Part shown: positions 2,195 through 12,395 of the stretch, one piece after another
How the letters are laid out: each line of letters starts with the position of its first letter
Numbering within the stretch: position 1 is the first letter of the stretch
From: Chloroflexota bacterium
GTDB taxonomy: Bacteria; Nitrospirota; Thermodesulfovibrionia; Thermodesulfovibrionales; Dissulfurispiraceae
Length of the DNA stretch: 15,107 bases
Direction: 5' to 3'
NCBI GenBank assembly: GCA_050257935.1
Contig: JBLMXV010000198.1
Span: 1 to 15,107 of the forward strand
Position numbers and translations under genes: made by a program
The notes under the pieces: model-generated
What the model was told of the DNA's origin: nothing
Databases searched by the model: none
The model's input: only the letters and a program-made list of their open reading frames with translations

Positions 2195-2680
2195 ATGACC
2201 TTAGCGGAGAAGATAGAGAGGCTTGTACGCCACCTGCCGGGGGTAGCGGGCTACCAGGACAGGGAGACGTCGAGGAGCACTGACAAGGTTGTTCGTCAGC
2301 GTCTTTCTGCAGAGCTCGATGAAATGGTCCGGGAGATCGAAAGGGTCAAGGCGAAGTGCGTGGATGATAAGGATCTCTCGTCCCTCGCTCTCCTGGACAG
2401 GCTTTCTACAAAGCTCGATAGGCTCTCTCAAACGGTGATGTATGCCAGTTACGGGTACGGGGGTCTTTTCGACGTCAGCAAGTTCGGCAGCGATGGGCTT
2501 GCACAGCTGTATGCCTTTGACCTCGGCCTTCTCGATGAGTTGGAAGCTGTCAGGGTGAAGGCCGGGGAACTCCGTCAGGGCGGCGAGGTGCTTAGGGAGG
2601 CCGCGGTGGAATCCGAACGGTTGCTCGATGTCTTTGAAAAGACATTCATGTCACGTCAGACGATTATCGAGGGTGGTTAG
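2195..2680 (+). CDS. Hypothetical coiled-coil protein, 161 aa, first gene of the SPFH/zinc-ribbon cassette
   Basis: Strong Shine-Dalgarno (ggaggt) 6-7 nt upstream of the ATG. Charged, heptad-like sequence (ELDEMVREIERVKAK...). Stop lies 10 nt before the next gene, whose SD (ggaggg) overlaps the stop region. No recognised family; it does not align to the PspA N-terminus. Confidence 0.7.
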   Translation: MTLAEKIERLVRHLPGVAGYQDRETSRSTDKVVRQRLSAELDEMVREIERVKAKCVDDKDLSSLALLDRLSTKLDRLSQTVMYASYGYGGLFDVSKFGSDGLAQLYAFDLGLLDELEAVRVKAGELRQGGEVLREAAVESERLLDVFEKTFMSRQTIIEGG

Positions 2681-2689
2681 GGAGGGACC

Positions 2690-3856
2690 ATGTCCGAGTT
2701 CGTGGAGATTATCGAGTGGTTCGATGAGACCGGCGACGAAATCGTTCACCGCTACCCTCAGGAAGGGTCGGCGGAAATCAAGTTCGGTGCTCAGCTTGTC
2801 GTGCGGGAGAATCAGGCCGCCGTGTTTTTCAGGGATGGCAGGGGACTCGACGTTTTCGGCCCGGGACGCCATACTCTCACCACGCAGAACCTGCCGATAC
2901 TGACGAAGCTGCTCTCCCTGCCGTGGGGATTCAAGAGTCCGTTCAGGGTCGAGGTGTGCTTCATCAATCTGAAGGTGTTCACGAACCTGCGGTGGGGAAC
3001 GAAGGAGCCGGTGGCATTCAAAGACTCGGAACTCGGGCTGATCAGGCTCAGGGCTTTCGGTGTCTTTACGATGCAGGTCACACAGCCGCTTCTGTTTCTC
3101 AATACCATCGTGGGCACGCGGGGCAGGCTTGACACCGGGTCGGTGGAGGATTACCTGAGGGAGGTGGTGGTGTCGAGGCTGACCGATTTTCTCGGAGATA
3201 CTGTCGACACCCTTGTCGAACTGCCGAAGTTCTATGACGAGATGGCCGTTGCTGTGAAGACCCGCCTGGCCGAGGATTTCCGCAAGTACGGGATGGAGTT
3301 GAGAGACTTTTACATCAGCCGCATCACGCCACCCGAGGACGTGCAGAGGATGATCGACGAGAGGTCGGGCATGGCAGCCGTGGGAAATATCGACGAGTTC
3401 TTCAAGTTCAAGGCCGCAAAAGCGATGGGTGACATGGCATCAGGACGGGGAGACACCACAGGAGGCGGGGCTGCTCAAGGGATGGGCCTCGGCCTCGGTG
3501 CAGGATTGGGCATGATGGTTCCGGGCATGCTGTACCGGGTACTCGGGGGACCTGTCACAGGTCCCGAGGTTGCAGGAAGAATGGCGACGGTCAACTGCCC
3601 CGACTGTCATGGCGAGGTGAGCCTGGACAGTCGTTTCTGTCCCCATTGCGGCAATCAGATGGTCGTGATCCGCAAGTGTCCTCGATGCAGCAAGAACGTG
3701 ACAGCCACTGCGAGGTTCTGCCCGTCCTGCGGCTTGGACCTGGCTTCTGAATTCCGCTGCCCCCATTGCCAGACGAAGCTGTTGCCAGGGGCGAGATTCT
3801 GCGTGAACTGTGGCGAGAAGATTCCCGAAACAGTGGAAGGGCGCGGAACCGCGTAG
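2690..3856 (+). CDS. SPFH/band-7 (stomatin-prohibitin) family protein of the COG4260/YdjI type with three tandem C-terminal zinc ribbons
   Basis: The N-terminus (FVEIIEWFDETGDEIVHRYPQEG...IKFGAQLVVRENQAAVFFRDG) matches the characteristic COG4260 opening (xxIEWxD...VWRFP). A Gly-rich low-complexity linker follows (GGGAAQGMGLGLGAGLGMM), then three repeats of CPxC-x(10-13)-FCxxCG (CPDC..FCPHCG, CPRC..FCPSCG, CPHC..FCVNCG). Confidence 0.85.
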   Translation: MSEFVEIIEWFDETGDEIVHRYPQEGSAEIKFGAQLVVRENQAAVFFRDGRGLDVFGPGRHTLTTQNLPILTKLLSLPWGFKSPFRVEVCFINLKVFTNLRWGTKEPVAFKDSELGLIRLRAFGVFTMQVTQPLLFLNTIVGTRGRLDTGSVEDYLREVVVSRLTDFLGDTVDTLVELPKFYDEMAVAVKTRLAEDFRKYGMELRDFYISRITPPEDVQRMIDERSGMAAVGNIDEFFKFKAAKAMGDMASGRGDTTGGGAAQGMGLGLGAGLGMMVPGMLYRVLGGPVTGPEVAGRMATVNCPDCHGEVSLDSRFCPHCGNQMVVIRKCPRCSKNVTATARFCPSCGLDLASEFRCPHCQTKLLPGARFCVNCGEKIPETVEGRGTA

Positions 3857-3970
3857 CTCACGACATAGGTACCGTCGAAGTGAAATACCCGTCTTCCATT
3901 AGTGCACGGGTGGGCTCACTCCCGTCGGCACAGGTTCGTGCCGTCCTGCGGACCCGCCCTTGAACCCCGG

Positions 3971-5494
3971 ATGCTGAAGCGCTTCTCGGTCTCTGCCGAG
4001 TGTCCCTCCTGCGGGGCTCCCCTCGACTTCAGCGTAGGTTCCAATGCGGTCAGCTGCAGCCATTGCCGCTCCAATCTTCTCATCACAGGGCGGGGCAAGG
4101 TCCTCAGCTACTGCGTGCAACCGCAACTCGACGTGCACCGTGCAGTGGCCAGGGTCATGGTGGCGCCGGTGCGCAGCGGCGTTCGTGTAATAAAACCCCG
4201 ACTCTATTTCATACCCTACCACAATTTCACGGGCTATGAGCTTCGGTGGGAGAGGATAAAGGAGACTCCTGCGGAGTCCATGCTCCACGGTGAAGGCGGT
4301 TCGTGGATGAGTTTGGACCCTGAGGAGTATACAGTGAGGCAGGTGCCGGTTGCGATCGGTGAGATAGTGGAGGCTGCGGGAGAGTTTTTCCGTGCTGTCT
4401 TCAGCAAGGGAAAGAAGGGTGTGCCTGCCGAAGATCCTCCCTGTCCTGCATCCGGGATGCAGACGGCCGCTGAATCCAAGCCTTTCCGTGGCGCGCATGC
4501 CGCAGCAAGTCCCGCTCTGTGCAGGGGTCTGCAACTTCGTGACCGCTATGTGACGAGGAGTTCCCTTGCACTCGACATGGACGGCACGGGCATGTATTCC
4601 CTCGGCGTGAGACCGGGAGTGGTGCGTCTCGAGCTCTTCAGGCGTGACAAGGTTGAGGCGCTCGGGCGTGTCGTGAGGCCCCGCGTATCCGCCGAAACTC
4701 TGATGTCACAGGTCACAGGCATGGAGACAGAACCGGAGTGCCTCTATCGCACGGTCCTTGCAAAGACGCTGTCCCTCATCTATTTTCCGTACTGGGTGGT
4801 GGAATGTGAGTGGAGGCGGGAAAGGTCCCTCACGATCGTCGATGCCGTGTCGGGATCGGTGGTGAGGCGCGACGCGTCCATCACCCTGTTGGAGATCCTC
4901 GACGAGACCGAACAGAGCGCCCCGGCAGTGGTGGGCTTCAGACAATTGATATGCCCGAATTGCGGATGGGATCTCCCCGTGAGGCCTGACGACGTGATCT
5001 TCTTCTGCTCATCGTGCAGGAAGGCGTGGCAGATACGGCAGGAAAACCTGAACGAGACGGCGTACCGCGTGGCGGACGGAGGTGACAGCGATACGAAAAA
5101 GCAGTTCCGCTATCTGCCCCTATGGGAAGTTCCATCCGTTTCAGGGGAAGATTCAGCGGAGACGCTTCCGGTTCCTGCCTGGAGATACCGCCGGCTCAAG
5201 ACACTGGTTGAGCTCGCCGTCAGGCTGTCGGGCCGGCCAATGAGCAACGCCCTGCCGGATACTCTGGTGGGCGATTTCGTAGGGTGCTACTACGACGAAG
5301 ACGATGCCCTTCTCATCGCCCGATTCGTGCGGGCAGCCCACATGGCGAAGACCGCCGAAGACCTTCTGAAAGTTTCCGAAGGCTCCGTGCAGACGGGGCC
5401 GGCATCTCTGACCTGGATCCCCTTAGAGGTGAGAGGAGTCAACCTGATCGAGCCTGTAACAGGGACGAGTCTCTACCGCGACCTCATCTGGTGA
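3971..5494 (+). CDS. Large double zinc-ribbon protein (YdjG-like), ~508 aa from the ATG at 3971
   Basis: N-terminal zinc ribbon (CPSCGAPLDFSVGSNAVSCSHCRSNL) directly after MLKRFSV, and a second one mid-protein (CPNCGWDLPVRPDDVIFFCSSCRKAW). Same strand, 114-nt gap after the SPFH gene. Start is ambiguous: ATG at 3971 has no SD, and a GTG at 3902 is possible. Architecture parallels B. subtilis YdjG. Confidence 0.7.
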   Translation: MLKRFSVSAECPSCGAPLDFSVGSNAVSCSHCRSNLLITGRGKVLSYCVQPQLDVHRAVARVMVAPVRSGVRVIKPRLYFIPYHNFTGYELRWERIKETPAESMLHGEGGSWMSLDPEEYTVRQVPVAIGEIVEAAGEFFRAVFSKGKKGVPAEDPPCPASGMQTAAESKPFRGAHAAASPALCRGLQLRDRYVTRSSLALDMDGTGMYSLGVRPGVVRLELFRRDKVEALGRVVRPRVSAETLMSQVTGMETEPECLYRTVLAKTLSLIYFPYWVVECEWRRERSLTIVDAVSGSVVRRDASITLLEILDETEQSAPAVVGFRQLICPNCGWDLPVRPDDVIFFCSSCRKAWQIRQENLNETAYRVADGGDSDTKKQFRYLPLWEVPSVSGEDSAETLPVPAWRYRRLKTLVELAVRLSGRPMSNALPDTLVGDFVGCYYDEDDALLIARFVRAAHMAKTAEDLLKVSEGSVQTGPASLTWIPLEVRGVNLIEPVTGTSLYRDLIW

Positions 5495-7532: not shown

Positions 7533-8066
7533 TCATTCGTTCCTGACCACTCTGACGCCGAGCACGTGCCTCATGATCCTGATGGCTGCTTCATGGTCCT
7601 CCCTGGCGAGTCCGGCTACGCCGTTTTCGATAACGGTGACAGAGTAGTCGCGCAGGACCGCGTCTGACGCGGTGAACAGGATGCAGATGTGGGTCACGCA
7701 GCCTGTGAGCCTAAGGCAGTGCATCCCGAGGCTCCTGAGGGTATCGTGCAACGTGGTCCCAAAGAAGCTCGAATACGTGGTCTTGTGGATGACCATATCA
7801 CCGGCCAGGGGCCTCAGGTCGTCCACGATCTGCGCCCCCACCGTGCCCTCCACGGCATGGGGTGGCCAGCCGAACTTTGAGAACTCGGGGTCGTCTGCTG
7901 TATGCGCATCGCAGATGTACAAGACTGGCTTTCCCTCTCTTCTCGCTGCCTCAATCTCCTTCCGTATGACGGGCAGTACGATACGTGTGTCCGGTACTTC
8001 CAAAGGTGCGCCTTCGAGCACAAAATCGTTGAGCATGTCTATGACCAGTAATGCTTCTGTTCCCAC
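7533..8066 (-). CDS. Isochorismatase-family cysteine hydrolase (nicotinamidase-like)
   Basis: ALLVIDMLNDF start, the DAH...DPEF motif, catalytic Cys context (LTGCVTHICI) and a 177-aa length are all typical of the isochorismatase/PncA superfamily. Confidence 0.85.
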   Translation of the reverse strand: MGTEALLVIDMLNDFVLEGAPLEVPDTRIVLPVIRKEIEAARREGKPVLYICDAHTADDPEFSKFGWPPHAVEGTVGAQIVDDLRPLAGDMVIHKTTYSSFFGTTLHDTLRSLGMHCLRLTGCVTHICILFTASDAVLRDYSVTVIENGVAGLAREDHEAAIRIMRHVLGVRVVRNE

Positions 8067-8073
8067 TGCCGTT

Positions 8074-8571
8074 CTATTTGATGAGATCCTCGGTTCCCCT
8101 GAAAGCTTCGGACAGGGCGAGTTCGACCGAGTCGGGGACGAGCCCTTTCACCGATCCGCCGAACGACACGACTTCCTTCACAATAGTGGAGGAGAGAAAG
8201 GAGTATCTCAGCGATGGCATCATGAAGACGGTAACGATGTTGTTGTCGAGCTTTCTGTTCATGAGGGTCATCTGCAGTTCATATTCGTAGTCCGACACGG
8301 CACGGAGGCCCCTGATGATTGCGATGCCGCCCCTGCTTTTCGCGTACTCCACAAGGAGGCTGTCGAAAGCTTCGACCTTTACATGCGTGAACTGTTTCAC
8401 GGACTCCTTTATGAGATACAGGCGGTGATCGAGGCTGAAGAGGGGTTGTTTCTTTGGGCTTGGCGCGACGGCTACGATGATCTCATCAAAGATCATGAGG
8501 CCTCGTTCGATGAGGTCGAGATGGCCGTTAGTGATTGGGTCGAAGGTTCCCGGGTAGATCGCTGTTCTCAT
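8074..8571 (-). CDS. coaD: Phosphopantetheine adenylyltransferase
   Basis: MRTAIYPGTFDPITNGHLDLIERG (T/HxGH nucleotidyltransferase motif) and RGLRAVSDYEYELQMTLMNRKL (CoaD signature); 165 aa. The ATG at 8571 overlaps the rsmD stop (ATGA). The ORF-track N-terminal extension is not used. Confidence 0.9.
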   Translation of the reverse strand: MRTAIYPGTFDPITNGHLDLIERGLMIFDEIIVAVAPSPKKQPLFSLDHRLYLIKESVKQFTHVKVEAFDSLLVEYAKSRGGIAIIRGLRAVSDYEYELQMTLMNRKLDNNIVTVFMMPSLRYSFLSSTIVKEVVSFGGSVKGLVPDSVELALSEAFRGTEDLIK

Positions 8572-9215
8572 AGGCGCACACTCTTTTCCCCGCGTCCAGG
8601 GATCATTGACGGATTGTCGGGCATCTTCTCGAGGACGAAGAGCGTGAGGGCGGTGTCCCCGTACTGGTAGCGTTTGACCGGCCTCAGGCCTCCTGCATCG
8701 ACGGGAAGCATAATCTTTGACGAATGCTCTGCGAGGAGAAGGCCCCCTGATCTCAGGACGCAACCCGTGCCGAACAGCGGCAGGATCGTCTCGATCTCAC
8801 CGGAGGCGTAGGGTGGGTCGACAAAGGCGATGTCGAACTGAAATCCCTCCGCGACGGCGGCGAGTGAGGCTCTGCCTGCCGTGACGAAACGAGCCGCCCT
8901 GTCCCTTACCACGCGTGCCTTCCCCGTGAAACCGTATCTGTTGATCAGGTCTGCGATGAAACGGGTCAGGGCAGGGCTCTCGTCGACGAACACCACGAGC
9001 CCCGCCCCCCTGCTGAGTGCCTCGATGCCGACCGCGCCTGTTCCAGCATAGAGATCGAGAAATCTGCAGTCGACGATGCGGTCCCCGAGGATGTCGAAGA
9101 CGGCCTCTCGCACTTTTGCAGAAGTCGGGCGCAGCTTGTCCTCATCGAATCTCTTCGAGAACGATTTCCGATCGATGACCAGTCTGCCCTTGGCAATACC
9201 GCCCGAGATTCTCAT
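8568..9215 (-). CDS. rsmD: 16S rRNA (guanine966-N2)-methyltransferase RsmD
   Basis: MRISGGIAKGRLV...RPTSAKVREAVFDIL...DLYAGTGAVGIEALSRGA...FVDPPY, with a class-I SAM methyltransferase fold and the DPPY motif. Start overlaps the purN stop (ATGA at 9212-9215). Confidence 0.85.
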   Translation of the reverse strand: MRISGGIAKGRLVIDRKSFSKRFDEDKLRPTSAKVREAVFDILGDRIVDCRFLDLYAGTGAVGIEALSRGAGLVVFVDESPALTRFIADLINRYGFTGKARVVRDRAARFVTAGRASLAAVAEGFQFDIAFVDPPYASGEIETILPLFGTGCVLRSGGLLLAEHSSKIMLPVDAGGLRPVKRYQYGDTALTLFVLEKMPDNPSMIPGRGEKSVRL

Positions 9216-9868
9216 GGTTCTCCGCGCAAAGGCGGGCTGGCGATGGCACTGTTCTGCAGTTCATACCCCGAGATCTTGACGGTGCGGCCTTCCATGCGGA
9301 GCCTCCCCTCCGCGTAAAGCCTGATCGCCTCGGGGTAGATCCTGTGTTCCATCCTCAGAATCCGTTCGGAGAGGCTCTCTTCCGTGTCATCAGGTGATAC
9401 GGGAACCGCGGCCTGGATGATGACCGGCCCGGTATCCATGCCATCATCGACAAAGTGCACCGTGCAGCCGCTTATCCTGGCGCCGTAGTCGACTGCCTGC
9501 TTCTGGCCGTGGAGGCCGGGGAACGCAGGAAGAAGTGCCGGGTGTATGTTCATGATCCGGTTCGGAAAGGCGTCGATGAGGGGTTTCCTCACGATTCGCA
9601 TGAAGCCTGCGAGAATGACGAGTTCCACTGATCTCCGCTGCAATTCAGCGGCGATGGCCTCGAAGAAGGCATCTTTTCCGGCGAAGTCTTTAGGGTTCAT
9701 GAAGAGGTGTTCAATCCGATGTTTCTTTGCACGGTCTATAGCGTATGCCTTCTGATTGTCGACGACGAGAAGCGACACAGCGGCTTTCAGATTCCCTGTC
9801 TCTATTTCGTCGATGATGGATTGAAAATTCGAGCCGCGGCCTGAAGCGAGGACTCCGAGTTTCAGCAT
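9212..9868 (-). CDS. purN: Phosphoribosylglycinamide formyltransferase
   Basis: LGVLASGRGSNFQSII...NIHPALLPAFPGLHGQKQA...DTGPVI are canonical PurN/formyltransferase motifs. ggaggtg SD 6 nt upstream. Confidence 0.9.
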   Translation of the reverse strand: MLKLGVLASGRGSNFQSIIDEIETGNLKAAVSLLVVDNQKAYAIDRAKKHRIEHLFMNPKDFAGKDAFFEAIAAELQRRSVELVILAGFMRIVRKPLIDAFPNRIMNIHPALLPAFPGLHGQKQAVDYGARISGCTVHFVDDGMDTGPVIIQAAVPVSPDDTEESLSERILRMEHRIYPEAIRLYAEGRLRMEGRTVKISGYELQNSAIASPPLRGEP

Positions 9869-9927: not shown

Positions 9928-10953
9928 TCATCGACGCCGTTGGCTCAGCTCGTGCACGCAGTCCACGAGGGACATTGCGTTGTCGGGCGGCGTCTCCGGG
10001 AGTATGCCGTGGCCGAGATTGAAGATGTGCCCTTTTGCTTCCCCGGCGCCTGAAAGGATCTGTGAAGCCCTCTCCCTGATGAGGTCCCTTGTGCCGAAGA
10101 GGAGGCACGGATCCATATTGCCCTGGACCGCGACATCCTTGCCGAGAGCCTGTACCGCGTCTGCCATGTCGATGCGCCAGTCAAGGCCGAAGACATCAGC
10201 ACCGGCGGTCCTCACCTGTTTCAGCATCGCGCTTCCGTTGAACGCAAAGTATATCACCGGGAGTTTTCCTTTGAATGCAGTGATGATTTTCCGGACCCAC
10301 GGCAAGGCAAGTGTCGTGAAGTCAGCTGGTGAGAGGGCACCAGCCCAGGAGTCGAAGACCTGGATCGCCTGTGCGCCAGCATCCACCTGGGCCTGCAGGT
10401 ACCGTATGACGGTCTCGGTGATCTTGTCCATAAGTTGCGAGAAGAGGGCGGGTCTCCGGTACATCATGCCCTTGGTGTGGATAAAATTCCTCGAGCTGCC
10501 CCCTTCTATCATGTACGTGGCAAGGGTGAAAGGGGCTCCGGAAAAGCCGATCAGCGGCACGGAGAGCCTCTTCACGAGAAGTTTCACTGCCTCGATGACG
10601 AAGGGGACATCCTCCTCGGGGACGATGGACCGCAGGCGGGCCACCGCCGAATCGGTGCGCAACGGGTCATGGAGCACGGGCCCTTTCGATTCCGAGAACT
10701 CTAGTTTCATCCCCATCGGTTCAAGAGGGATGAGGATGTCGGAGAAGAGGATCGCTGCGTCCACTTTAAGGATCTCGACAGGCTGGAGGGTCACCTCAGC
10801 AGCGAGTTCAGGGGTTTTACACAGGGTGAGGAAATCCACCTTCGCCCTCACTTTCTGGTATTCCGGCAGATAGCGTCCCGCCTGTCTCATGATCCAGACG
10901 GGGGTATACGGCGTCTCCTCCCCCCTGCACGCCTTGAGAAAGGTGTCGTTCAT
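9928..10953 (-). CDS. hemE: Uroporphyrinogen decarboxylase
   Basis: From [33 protein letters not shown] the sequence matches the HemE N-terminal signature ([14 protein letters not shown]); 341 aa. The ATG at 10953 overlaps the upstream radical-SAM stop (ATGA). The ORF-track 524-aa version includes a spurious upstream in-frame extension. Confidence 0.9.
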
Positions 10954-12029
10954 TTCGCCGCCGCCTCCTTCCTCTTCAGCCTCGCAGGCTTGTAGGTGCA
11001 GAAGGGCTCCTCTTCGAGGTAGTCGCCATGGACCGAGTAAGCCCGCGCTCTGCAGCCTCCGCAGACATTCACGAATTCGCAGGAACCGCACCTCCCCTTG
11101 TATTTGGAGAAGTCCCTCAGTTCCTTGAAGAGATCGGAGTGTTCCCATATGTCTTTGAATGACCGTTCCCGGACGTTCCCTGCGGAACGGGGGAAATAGC
11201 TGCAGGGCAGGACGTTGCCGTCCACGTCGATGAGGCATATCACCTGTCCGGCGATACATCCCTTTGAACCGCCCGTGGAGAACTTCAGGGTGCGCCTCTT
11301 GAACATACTGCCCTCTTCCTTTGCCTTCTGGAGGACTATGCGGTAGTAATGAGGCGCGCAGGTGGGCCTCACGAGCAGGTCGTCTTCCCCCTTCTCCATC
11401 TGGTAATGCCAGTCCAATATGTCTTCGTAATCCTCCTTCGAAATGAGCTCGCTCATGATCTCTTCCCCTCTGCCGGTGGGCACGATCATGAACATGTACC
11501 ACGCCGTGGCGCCGATTTCTTTCGCGAGCCTGTAAACCTTCTGGATCTCTTCCTGGTTCCTCTTGGTGAATGACGAGTTGATGATGAACTCGATGCCATG
11601 GTCTCTGAAGAGCCGGGCGGCCCGCAGGGTGCCCTCGAAGGCGCCTTTCTGGTTCCTGAAATTGTCATGCACCTCGGCGGTCGAACCGTCGAGGCTGAGA
11701 GAGACGATCCTGATGCCTGACTCGCGTATCTTCGCGCATGTGTCCTCCGTCACGAGGGTCCCGTTCGTGGCGAGGCACATGCGAAGGCCTTTTTCCGTGC
11801 CGTAGCGGGCTATGTCGAACACGTCCGCCCTCAGGAGGGGCTCACCGCCGCTGAGGACGATCACCGGAGTCGCATAGCTCGCAATGTCGTCGAGGATGCG
11901 GAACGCCTCATCAATGCTCAAGTCGGGGTGCTCGCTCACCACCATCTCGGATGAAGAGCGGCAGTGCACGCACTTGAGGTTACATCGTCTCGTGATCTCC
12001 CATGCGATCCATCGTGGTATACATTCCAT
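10950..12029 (-). CDS. Radical SAM / SPASM-domain enzyme of the AhbC/AhbD/NirJ family (candidate anaerobic heme synthase)
   Basis: N-terminal [14 protein letters not shown] (CxxxCxxC radical-SAM cluster motif in the NirJ/Ahb-type WxLTxxCNLxCxHC context) and a C-terminal Cys-rich SPASM region ([18 protein letters not shown]); 359 aa. Translationally coupled to hemE. Confidence 0.85.
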
Positions 12030-12144
12030 TGTGTTCGACCTTCACGTATTTATTTGTTCCCAAGATCCAGTGGTACGCGTGCGGTAAGGAGACGCCGTCT
12101 CGCGCTCCGGCAGCACTCTGCCGCCGTTCTACGGCTCACTTCGC

Positions 12145-12188
12145 TGCAGCCGCTGAACTCACCCTTCGGGTTCAGACACCAGCGGCTG
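12145..12188. repeat. 44-nt nested GC-rich palindrome (GCAGCCGCTG-N24-CAGCGGCTGC, with inner CTGAAC...GTTCAG and a cUUCGg-like apex)
   Basis: Read directly from the sequence: perfect 10-bp outer arms, a 6-bp inner pair and a UUCG-type loop. It lies in the 366-nt non-coding gap between hflX and the radical-SAM gene. A further hairpin, CGGCAG-cact-CTGCCG, lies at 12108-12123. Confidence 0.5.
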
Positions 12189-12204
12189 CGGCCGCTCCGT
12201 TTCG

Positions 12205-12252
12205 CCAAGAACGATAACGGGGACTACCGAAGTCGCTCGATCCGGCATCCCC
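12205..12252 (-). terminator. Candidate intrinsic terminator downstream of hflX (GGGGAUGCCG...CGGUAGUCCCC stem followed by GUUAUCGUUCUU)
   Basis: On the minus strand, an imperfect ~10-bp GC-rich stem with a 13-nt loop is followed by a moderately U-rich tract, ~145 nt past the hflX stop. The U-run is interrupted, so this is weak. Confidence 0.3.
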
Positions 12253-12395
12253 TTACGGCTGGATTCGGGTTGTATTAAGTGTACCACAGAGCCGCTGCTG
12301 AGTGGAAAGGGCATAGCTGGGATTATTCAGGTAGTTGCGGCAGCATCAGAGCAGAGGGTTCGAGAGCGAGAGTGCCGGTGTCAGCGACAGACGAC

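Follow-up and report, generated by a model that had tools for sequence, protein, structure and literature searches.

The stretch of DNA analysed here is a 15,107-nt window of contig JBLMXV010000198.1 (assembly GCA_050257935.1, titled 'Chloroflexota bacterium'), hereafter the window, and the subject of this work is a gene for a putative radical S-adenosylmethionine (SAM) enzyme together with its neighbour hemE. The radical SAM gene occupies positions 10950-12029 of the minus strand, starts with ATG and encodes 359 amino acids (aa). It is directly followed on the same strand by hemE (9928-10953, 341 aa), which encodes uroporphyrinogen III decarboxylase. The minus strand reads, in order, an HD-GYP-type gene, hflX, the radical SAM gene, hemE, purN, rsmD, coaD, an isochorismatase-family gene and rpsA; no heme gene other than the radical SAM gene and hemE was found in the window, hemH and hemY included.

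The two genes share the tetranucleotide ATGA at 10950-10953 (minus strand), in which the hemE ATG (10953-10951) overlaps the TGA of the radical SAM gene (10952-10950), and this overlap, which the original prediction had taken as translational coupling, can be read directly in the sequence. A Shine-Dalgarno-like GGAGG (10964-10968, minus strand) lies 10 nt before the hemE ATG, within the 3' end of the radical SAM gene, and may serve hemE. The hemE start was placed by the N-terminus MNDTFL, which is common to homologues. The product scored 440 bits on TIGR01464 against a cutoff of 303 and 454 bits on the Pfam domain URO-D, so that its earlier identification as hemE holds and it is a true uroporphyrinogen decarboxylase.

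AhbD-family assignment of the radical SAM protein

The radical SAM protein matched the Pfam domains Radical_SAM (PF04055, 96 bits, cutoff 29.5) and SPASM (PF13186, 44.8 bits, cutoff 21.5). Its N-terminus reads W10-x-x-T13-x-x-C16-N-L-x-C20-x-H-C23, in which the computed cysteine positions place the codons of the radical SAM cluster motif C16-X3-C20-X2-C23 at 11961-11984 on the minus strand, and C16, C20 and C23 were invariant across both homologue alignments. Eight cysteines lie in the C-terminal part of the protein (10998-11360, minus strand), spaced C224 X33 C258 X17 C276 X37 C314 X2 C317 X5 C323 X2 C326 X17 C344. Both the WxxTxxCNLxCxHC start and the C-terminal SPASM cysteine cluster on which the original prediction was built are accordingly present. 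The full SPASM motif of AhbD, CX20-33CX17CX36-37CX2CX5CX2CX17-35C, binds two auxiliary [4Fe-4S] clusters; it was derived from AhbDs of archaea (methanogens) and sulfate reducers and was tested on the characterised Methanosarcina barkeri enzyme (PMC10452713). A regular expression of this motif matched residues 224-344 of the window protein, and the same two auxiliary [4Fe-4S] clusters are predicted here from the motif spacing.

Among the NCBIfam models, the top match was TIGR04545, heme b synthase (AhbD), with 448 bits over residues 8-348 (model positions 2-339). Lower scores were obtained with TIGR04053 (326 bits), NirJ2 (312 bits), NirJ (218 bits), NirJ1 (218 bits) and AhbC (214 bits), and those of the maturase models were lower still (mycofactocin, 175 bits; PqqE, 135 bits; anaerobic sulfatase-maturating enzyme (anSME), 75 bits against a cutoff of 349). 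These low family scores rule out an anSME or a peptide maturase, which the original prediction had named as the outcome that would overturn it. A NirJ role was dropped on the basis of the lower model scores and of neighbourhoods in which no nir genes were noticed. HemN-family models were absent among the best 25 NCBIfam matches. The protein shares 49-51% identity with the AhbD homologues of Methanosarcina-family archaea and Desulfobacterales and approximately 30-32% with AhbC sequences. Judged from family models and cysteine motifs, it is a member of the AhbD family.

Like the AhbDs of M. barkeri and Desulfovibrio vulgaris (EC 1.3.98.6), the window protein joins a radical SAM domain to a SPASM domain and has the CX3CX2C motif and the eight-cysteine spacing. 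It differs from them in its TIGR04545 score, which for canonical AhbD homologues run as a control reached 632 bits (Methanosarcina) and 570 bits (a Desulfobacterales genome), and in its gene context, which in its clade consists of hemE, hemH and hemY where the canonical loci have ahbA/B, ahbC and hemB. NirJ and AhbC share the subfamily, the architecture and the use of tetrapyrrole substrates (didecarboxysiroheme), with model scores much weaker than that of AhbD. The closest solved structures were PqqE and anSME, with only 56-72 bits. An AlphaFold2 model based on 37 close homologues had a mean predicted local distance difference test (pLDDT) score of 68.6, with values below 50 in the cluster-binding segments, and was set aside as too poor.

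The hemE-linked clade and its gene neighbourhoods

The best 120 database matches to the radical SAM protein were 78-100% identical to it, the named ones being from Nitrospirota, Thermodesulfovibrionales, Dissulfurispiraceae and Candidatus Sulfobium. A species-level scan with one genome per species yielded 73 loci at 60-82% identity (the hemE-linked clade) and, after a gap, seven loci at 49-51%, which belong to Methanosarcina-family archaea and Desulfobacterales. By the titles of their records, which are those of metagenome-assembled genomes (MAGs) and can be wrong, the 73 clade loci come from Nitrospirota, Desulfobulbales families, SEEP-SRB2, Rokubacteria, Acidobacteriota, Aminicenantes, Deferribacterales and Myxococcales. 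Many Nitrospirota share approximately 80% identity; in Desulfobulbales and further groups with anaerobe labels it is 60-75%. Three labels do not match the remainder of the clade (L049, Methanobacteriota archaeon; L064, Enterobacteriaceae; L011, Nitrospira japonica), and these loci may be mis-binned contigs.

In neighbour-joining (NJ) trees calculated from p-distance-derived distances and rooted, for AhbD, on AhbC, the 60-82% group was monophyletic in 60 of 60 bootstraps and sat on a long stem. Its sister group, recovered in 44 of the 60, comprised the canonical AhbDs and AhbD-AhbA/B fusion proteins, and the clade was not nested inside it. Set against the phylogeny proposed at the outset as a check on family identity, the NJ tree rooted on AhbC places the protein probably nearest to AhbD, in a clade of its own instead of among the canonical enzymes. 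Many of the nearest relatives outside the clade are fusions of 660-1000 aa; by Pfam, nine of ten (P0124, P0131, P0134, P0135, P0138, P0149, P0155, P0157 and P0165) consist of an AhbD-like radical SAM protein and two siroheme decarboxylase (NirDL/AhbA-B) domains. The tenth, P0141, has an N-terminal domain of about 340 aa without family assignment instead. A fusion of the radical SAM protein to HemE, suggested as a link by a size of about 700 aa, was rejected, since by Pfam none of the ten is fused to HemE.

Neighbourhoods were counted over 66 loci (flank of 1.2 kb or more) for hemE, over 62 (3.5 kb or more) for hemH and hemY, and over 73 within 10 kb for other genes. Directly downstream of the radical SAM gene and on the same strand, hemE was found at 57 of the 66 loci, in groups labelled as several phyla. 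A hemH gene came after hemE at 20 of 62 loci (ferrochelatase TIGR00109, 300 bits) and hemY was present at 16 of 62 (HemY-type oxidase TIGR00562, 350 bits). Genes for ChdC, AhbA/B and AhbC were found at none of the 73 clade loci within 10 kb, even at E <= 0.01. The canonical AhbD loci, in contrast, had ahbC, ahbA/B or hemB close by in seven of seven cases and hemE in none, so that the split in sequence between the 60-82% and the 49-51% group coincides with a split in gene context.

Typical Nitrospirota contigs show the order hflX-ahbD-hemE-hemH-hemY-(open reading frame (ORF) of 76-77 aa)-ilvD, with ATGA at the ahbD/hemE junction, and Desulfobulbales loci show ahbD-hemE followed by an HD-domain gene, with hemH next in some. 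The small ORF between hemY and ilvD in Nitrospirota is highly charged, its copies (L084, 10654-10887; L087, 10426-10659; L090, 2897-3127) are 76-95% identical, and it has no NCBIfam match. The HD-domain protein of Desulfobulbales, about 198 aa long and encoded after hemE or between hemE and hemH, has as its top NCBIfam match the C-terminal part of the DVU_1551-family nucleoside triphosphate (NTP) transferase; its gene lies 3' of hemE at loci L031, L033, L036-L042, L046-L047, L050-L052, L054, L059 and L070. At three Thermodesulfovibrionia loci (L016, 841-2031; L017, 8748-9890; L026), the gene for the heme chaperone HemW stands directly upstream of ahbD-hemE, in the usual place of hflX. This gene had been considered as a hemN within the cluster and was rejected as such, its product being HemW (CxxxCxxCDF without a fourth cysteine; TIGR00539, 294 bits); a true HemN was seen at none of the 73 loci in the 10-kb flanks.

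The junction itself varies among relatives, where the radical SAM gene and hemE overlap at 16 of 65 loci (nine of them by 4 nt) and are separated by 30 nt or less at 19 more. Two further ATGA overlaps occur in the same gene string of the window, between purN and rsmD (9212-9215) and between rsmD and coaD (8568-8571), whose products are functionally unrelated. Since such overlaps also join unrelated genes here, the overlap of the radical SAM gene with hemE speaks for a compact operon and not for a functional link. The ATGA by itself proves nothing; the conserved adjacency of the two genes exceeds chance. What survives of the proposed coupling is therefore the adjacency, and not the overlap as a sign of common function.

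Proposed heme route and competing explanations

That an AhbD-like enzyme closes the coproporphyrin-dependent pathway anaerobically was reportedly proposed by Dailey et al. in 2015. Reviews give AhbD this ChdC-replacing role in coproporphyrin-route organisms, either outright or as likely (PMC13564367, PMC12670364, PMC10114771, PMC10548856, PMC7242693); one of them reports ahbD as colocalised either with hemY/hemH/hemQ or with ahbA/B/C, and one, from 2022, words it that an AhbD-like enzyme 'might be responsible'. As these reviews already hold it, the idea of a hybrid route is not new, and our literature search found no paper tying AhbD to Thermodesulfovibrio or Desulfobulbaceae. The hybrid route is an established but unproven model, and the comparative gene context described above appears to support it well.

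We favour, with modest confidence, the reading that an oxygen-independent AhbD-family decarboxylase has been recruited into the HemE-dependent heme branch, where it would act last, on coproheme, in place of ChdC. HemE would convert uroporphyrinogen III to coproporphyrinogen III, a HemY-type flavoprotein would oxidise the ring and a HemH-type ferrochelatase would insert iron to give coproheme; the radical SAM enzyme, with SAM and three iron-sulfur clusters, would then turn the ring A and B propionates into vinyls, giving heme b. It would thereby replace the peroxide-dependent ChdC/HemQ, an enzyme of unrelated fold with which it would share substrate and product. If a HemE-dependent route ends in an AhbD-type decarboxylase, one expects ahbD-hemE-hemH-hemY without ahbA/B, ahbC or chdC nearby, which is what the relatives show, and such a cluster would cover the path from uroporphyrinogen III to heme b provided that the radical SAM enzyme performs the propionate-to-vinyl step. 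The parts that we infer are the substrate, coproheme, the terminal position of the step, and the existence of hemH and hemY at another site of this genome. AhbC, AhbD and NirJ are described as acting on iron tetrapyrroles, either didecarboxysiroheme or Fe-coproporphyrin (reviews among those cited above), and because all three use iron-containing substrates, retention of coproheme is the conservative reading. The logic is that of the 'AhbD-like' proposal: coproheme is supplied by HemE, HemY and HemH, and an AhbD-type enzyme stands in for ChdC/HemQ. The reviews mainly concern Gram-positive bacteria, whereas the hosts here are labelled as diderms (Nitrospirota, Desulfobulbales), their HemY and HemH fall outside the CgoX and CpfC clades, and hemQ occurs in no cluster within 10 kb.

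A number of observations count against this reading, or at least against its order of steps. The score of 448 bits lies below the curated equivalog cutoff of TIGR04545, 500 bits, which is why NCBI gives the protein no AhbD name, and two more hemE-linked clade members scored 432-434 bits, also below 500. Relative to canonical AhbD, the clade has fixed substitutions of its own, among them F to I264, F to L266 and G to S277, and invariant residues (W7, R157, Y178 and H208); it also lacks a short insertion before the second SPASM cysteine that canonical AhbDs have. No assay of any hemE-linked clade enzyme was found in the literature. For the window's sublineage, hemH and hemY were not located in the 10-kb flanks or among the best 120 HemH matches, D. 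thermophila (Dissulfurispira thermophila) not being among these; in the window, as in a 98% relative and D. thermophila, the gene after hemE is purN and not hemH. Other HemH look-ups in relatives led again to genes inside ahbD clusters, and once to genes split from them: in another Nitrospirota genome (L090, 1-7331), a response-regulator fragment is followed by hemH-hemY-(76-aa ORF)-ilvD-ilvB, without ahbD-hemE in front. As L090 has hemH-hemY apart from ahbD-hemE, a split heme cluster exists in some genomes. The hybrid route of the original prediction is hence upheld in the enzyme family, in hemE and in the ahbD-hemE-hemH-hemY clusters of relatives, and falls short in that hemH and hemY were not located and that, in relatives, the HemY and HemH linked to it lie outside the known CgoX and CpfC groups.

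This last point bears on the substrate. The linked HemH proteins scored 209 bits with the human protoporphyrin ferrochelatase and 97-105 bits with the CpfCs of Bacillus and Listeria, a comparison that included no diderm CpfC references. The closest structure to the linked HemY was the protoporphyrinogen oxidase (PgoX) of Myxococcus xanthus (319 bits, versus 234 bits for Bacillus subtilis CgoX). Zamocky et al. reported R95, F329 and L332 as strictly conserved in PgoX and F227 as conserved in CgoX, signatures that rest on 74 sequences, most of them uncharacterised (PMC10740692). The linked HemY proteins have R95, F329 and L332 in 20 of 20 cases and a leucine in place of F227 in all 20; they also have a basic residue at the K71 site in 18 and at the R364 site in 17 of the 20, both features of CgoX. 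In a tree with references from the supplement of PMC10740692, taken from its PDF text with some errors, a CgoX supergroup that included Nitrospira defluvii and Acidobacteria had 94/100 support, and the linked HemYs formed their own group (67/100 bootstraps), which joined the Myxococcales oxidases in 13/100 and the diderm CgoX reference group (including Nitrospira) in 0/100 replicates. From these residues of both CgoX and PgoX and its own position in the tree, the linked HemY appears to be of an intermediate type. HemY type is in any case a weak guide to substrate, since in vitro the HemY-type enzymes of B. subtilis, P. acnes and M. tuberculosis accept either substrate (PMC5095920). Because the linked HemY and HemH fall outside the known CgoX and CpfC groups, an order of steps in which the decarboxylase comes last and takes coproheme is conjectural.

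The same data also allow a reading in which the enzyme acts directly after HemE, converting metal-free coproporphyrinogen III to protoporphyrinogen IX, the task of HemN/CgdH, with a protoporphyrinogen-type HemY and a protoporphyrin-type HemH finishing the pathway. In addition to the PgoX-like residues, structure match and tree position of HemY and the affinity of HemH to the human enzyme, this explanation would account for the 73 loci without a true HemN, the only HemN-like neighbour being HemW. It would also fit the ahbD-hemE pair, which is conserved more than the rest of the cluster, as two successive steps would lead one to expect, and the clade-specific substitutions that set the enzyme apart from canonical AhbD. 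HemN/CgdH carries out the same type of reaction, turning the propionates of rings A and B into vinyls by oxidative decarboxylation without oxygen, on a metal-free porphyrinogen and would be a functional analogue of an enzyme that takes coproporphyrinogen; its homology to the window protein is limited to the radical SAM core, and it has its own C-terminal domain where the window protein has SPASM. The reviews, however, describe no enzyme of the AhbC/AhbD/NirJ family that uses a metal-free porphyrinogen, and the window protein shares about 50% of its residues with AhbD homologues of siroheme clusters and has all AhbD cysteines. The basic residues at the K71 and R364 sites, the oxidation of both substrates by HemY-type enzymes in vitro, the narrow base of the PgoX/CgoX signatures and a hemN search over 10-kb flanks likewise temper the case. 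We consider a coproporphyrinogen substrate unlikely; if it were true, the enzyme would be an AhbD-derived replacement of HemN and the first of the AhbC/AhbD/NirJ family known to act on a metal-free porphyrinogen, and a fully clustered anaerobic protoporphyrin route would be made up of HemE, the radical SAM enzyme, a HemY like PgoX and a HemH like PpfC. If, as favoured, the substrate is coproheme, the cluster may represent the coproporphyrin route at an early stage, with a HemY and a HemH that have kept a likeness to the forebears of the protoporphyrin enzymes, which fits the retained basic residues.

Two other explanations would take the enzyme out of the HemE branch. Bacteria that respire sulfur compounds make siroheme, and members of the host lineage are named as such respirers; the enzyme could simply be the AhbD that closes the siroheme-dependent Ahb pathway, with ahbA/B and ahbC elsewhere in the genome and a hemE adjacency without pathway meaning. 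The AhbD family with its complete cysteine set, the ATGA overlaps between unrelated genes of the window and the purN, rsmD and coaD that follow hemE where heme genes might stand are all compatible with this. Against it, the clade stands apart from the AhbDs of ahb clusters in all bootstraps and scores under the AhbD cutoff, its loci have no ahb neighbours within 10 kb where the canonical ones have ahbC, ahbA/B or hemB, and the hemE adjacency recurs across groups labelled as several phyla, with hemH and hemY joining in about a third of the loci. Beside a full Ahb route, hemH and hemY would be redundant. The 0/73 ahb neighbours together with the recurrent hemH-hemY linkage make a plain siroheme role quite improbable. 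An unrelated function, in which the enzyme acts on another tetrapyrrole in a NirJ-like reaction, or on a peptide, and has no part in heme b synthesis, is less likely than that siroheme role, and we regard it as very improbable. SPASM radical SAM enzymes are functionally diverse, and the protein lies under every curated NCBIfam cutoff and is named only 'radical SAM protein' by NCBI. Its top models are nevertheless all tetrapyrrole enzymes with AhbD far in front, neither nir genes nor a gene for a precursor peptide were noticed nearby, its recurrent neighbours are hemE, hemH, hemY and hemW, and the Joint Genome Institute (JGI) annotates clade members as heme b synthase.

Flanking features and significance

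Downstream of hemE, the same-strand genes at 7533-9868 are purN (9212-9868), rsmD (8568-9215), coaD (8074-8571) and the isochorismatase-family gene (7533-8066, by Pfam), which are probably co-transcribed with hemE and are not heme genes. The order purN-rsmD-coaD-isochorismatase-family gene is also found in the 98% relative, and from hflX to the isochorismatase-family gene the order is as in D. thermophila, which has one extra DUF2301 gene. The nearest proteins are those of Nitrospirota/Thermodesulfovibrionia, and the Chloroflexota label of the record is probably a binning or labelling error. The GC content of the window is 57%, versus 37-49% in sampled related Thermodesulfovibrionia loci. An ORF of 524 aa with a GTG start (9928-11502, minus strand), in which the hemE frame stays open upstream across the 3' half of the radical SAM gene, was rejected as a gene and is explained by the high GC content.

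The spacer between hflX and the radical SAM gene (12030-12395, minus strand), the presumed location of the promoter, is unusually long at 366 nt, compared with 10 nt in some relatives, and contains a 13-nt inverted repeat (12143-12155 and 12180-12192). Neither a sigma-70-like promoter site nor a terminator-like site was found in this spacer, and no Rfam family was found anywhere in the window. Beside the gene for RNase E/G, three plus-strand genes (2195-5494), a set shared with the 98% relative, encode a 161-aa protein, a Band_7/SPFH protein with several zinc-ribbon motifs (2690-3856) and a protein of about 510-530 aa without Pfam match (3902-5494).

For strict anaerobes that use HemE, the oxygen- and peroxide-independent formation of the heme vinyl groups is still a matter of proposal. 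The large and highly conserved clade described here, which is left unnamed by NCBI's curated model and is encoded in a compact ahbD-hemE-hemH-hemY cluster, offers a clean test case, and D. thermophila, which carries a clade gene, is in culture and has a complete genome, AP022873.1. The linked HemY, with its residues of both oxidase types, may also bear on the evolution of the coproporphyrin and protoporphyrin routes.

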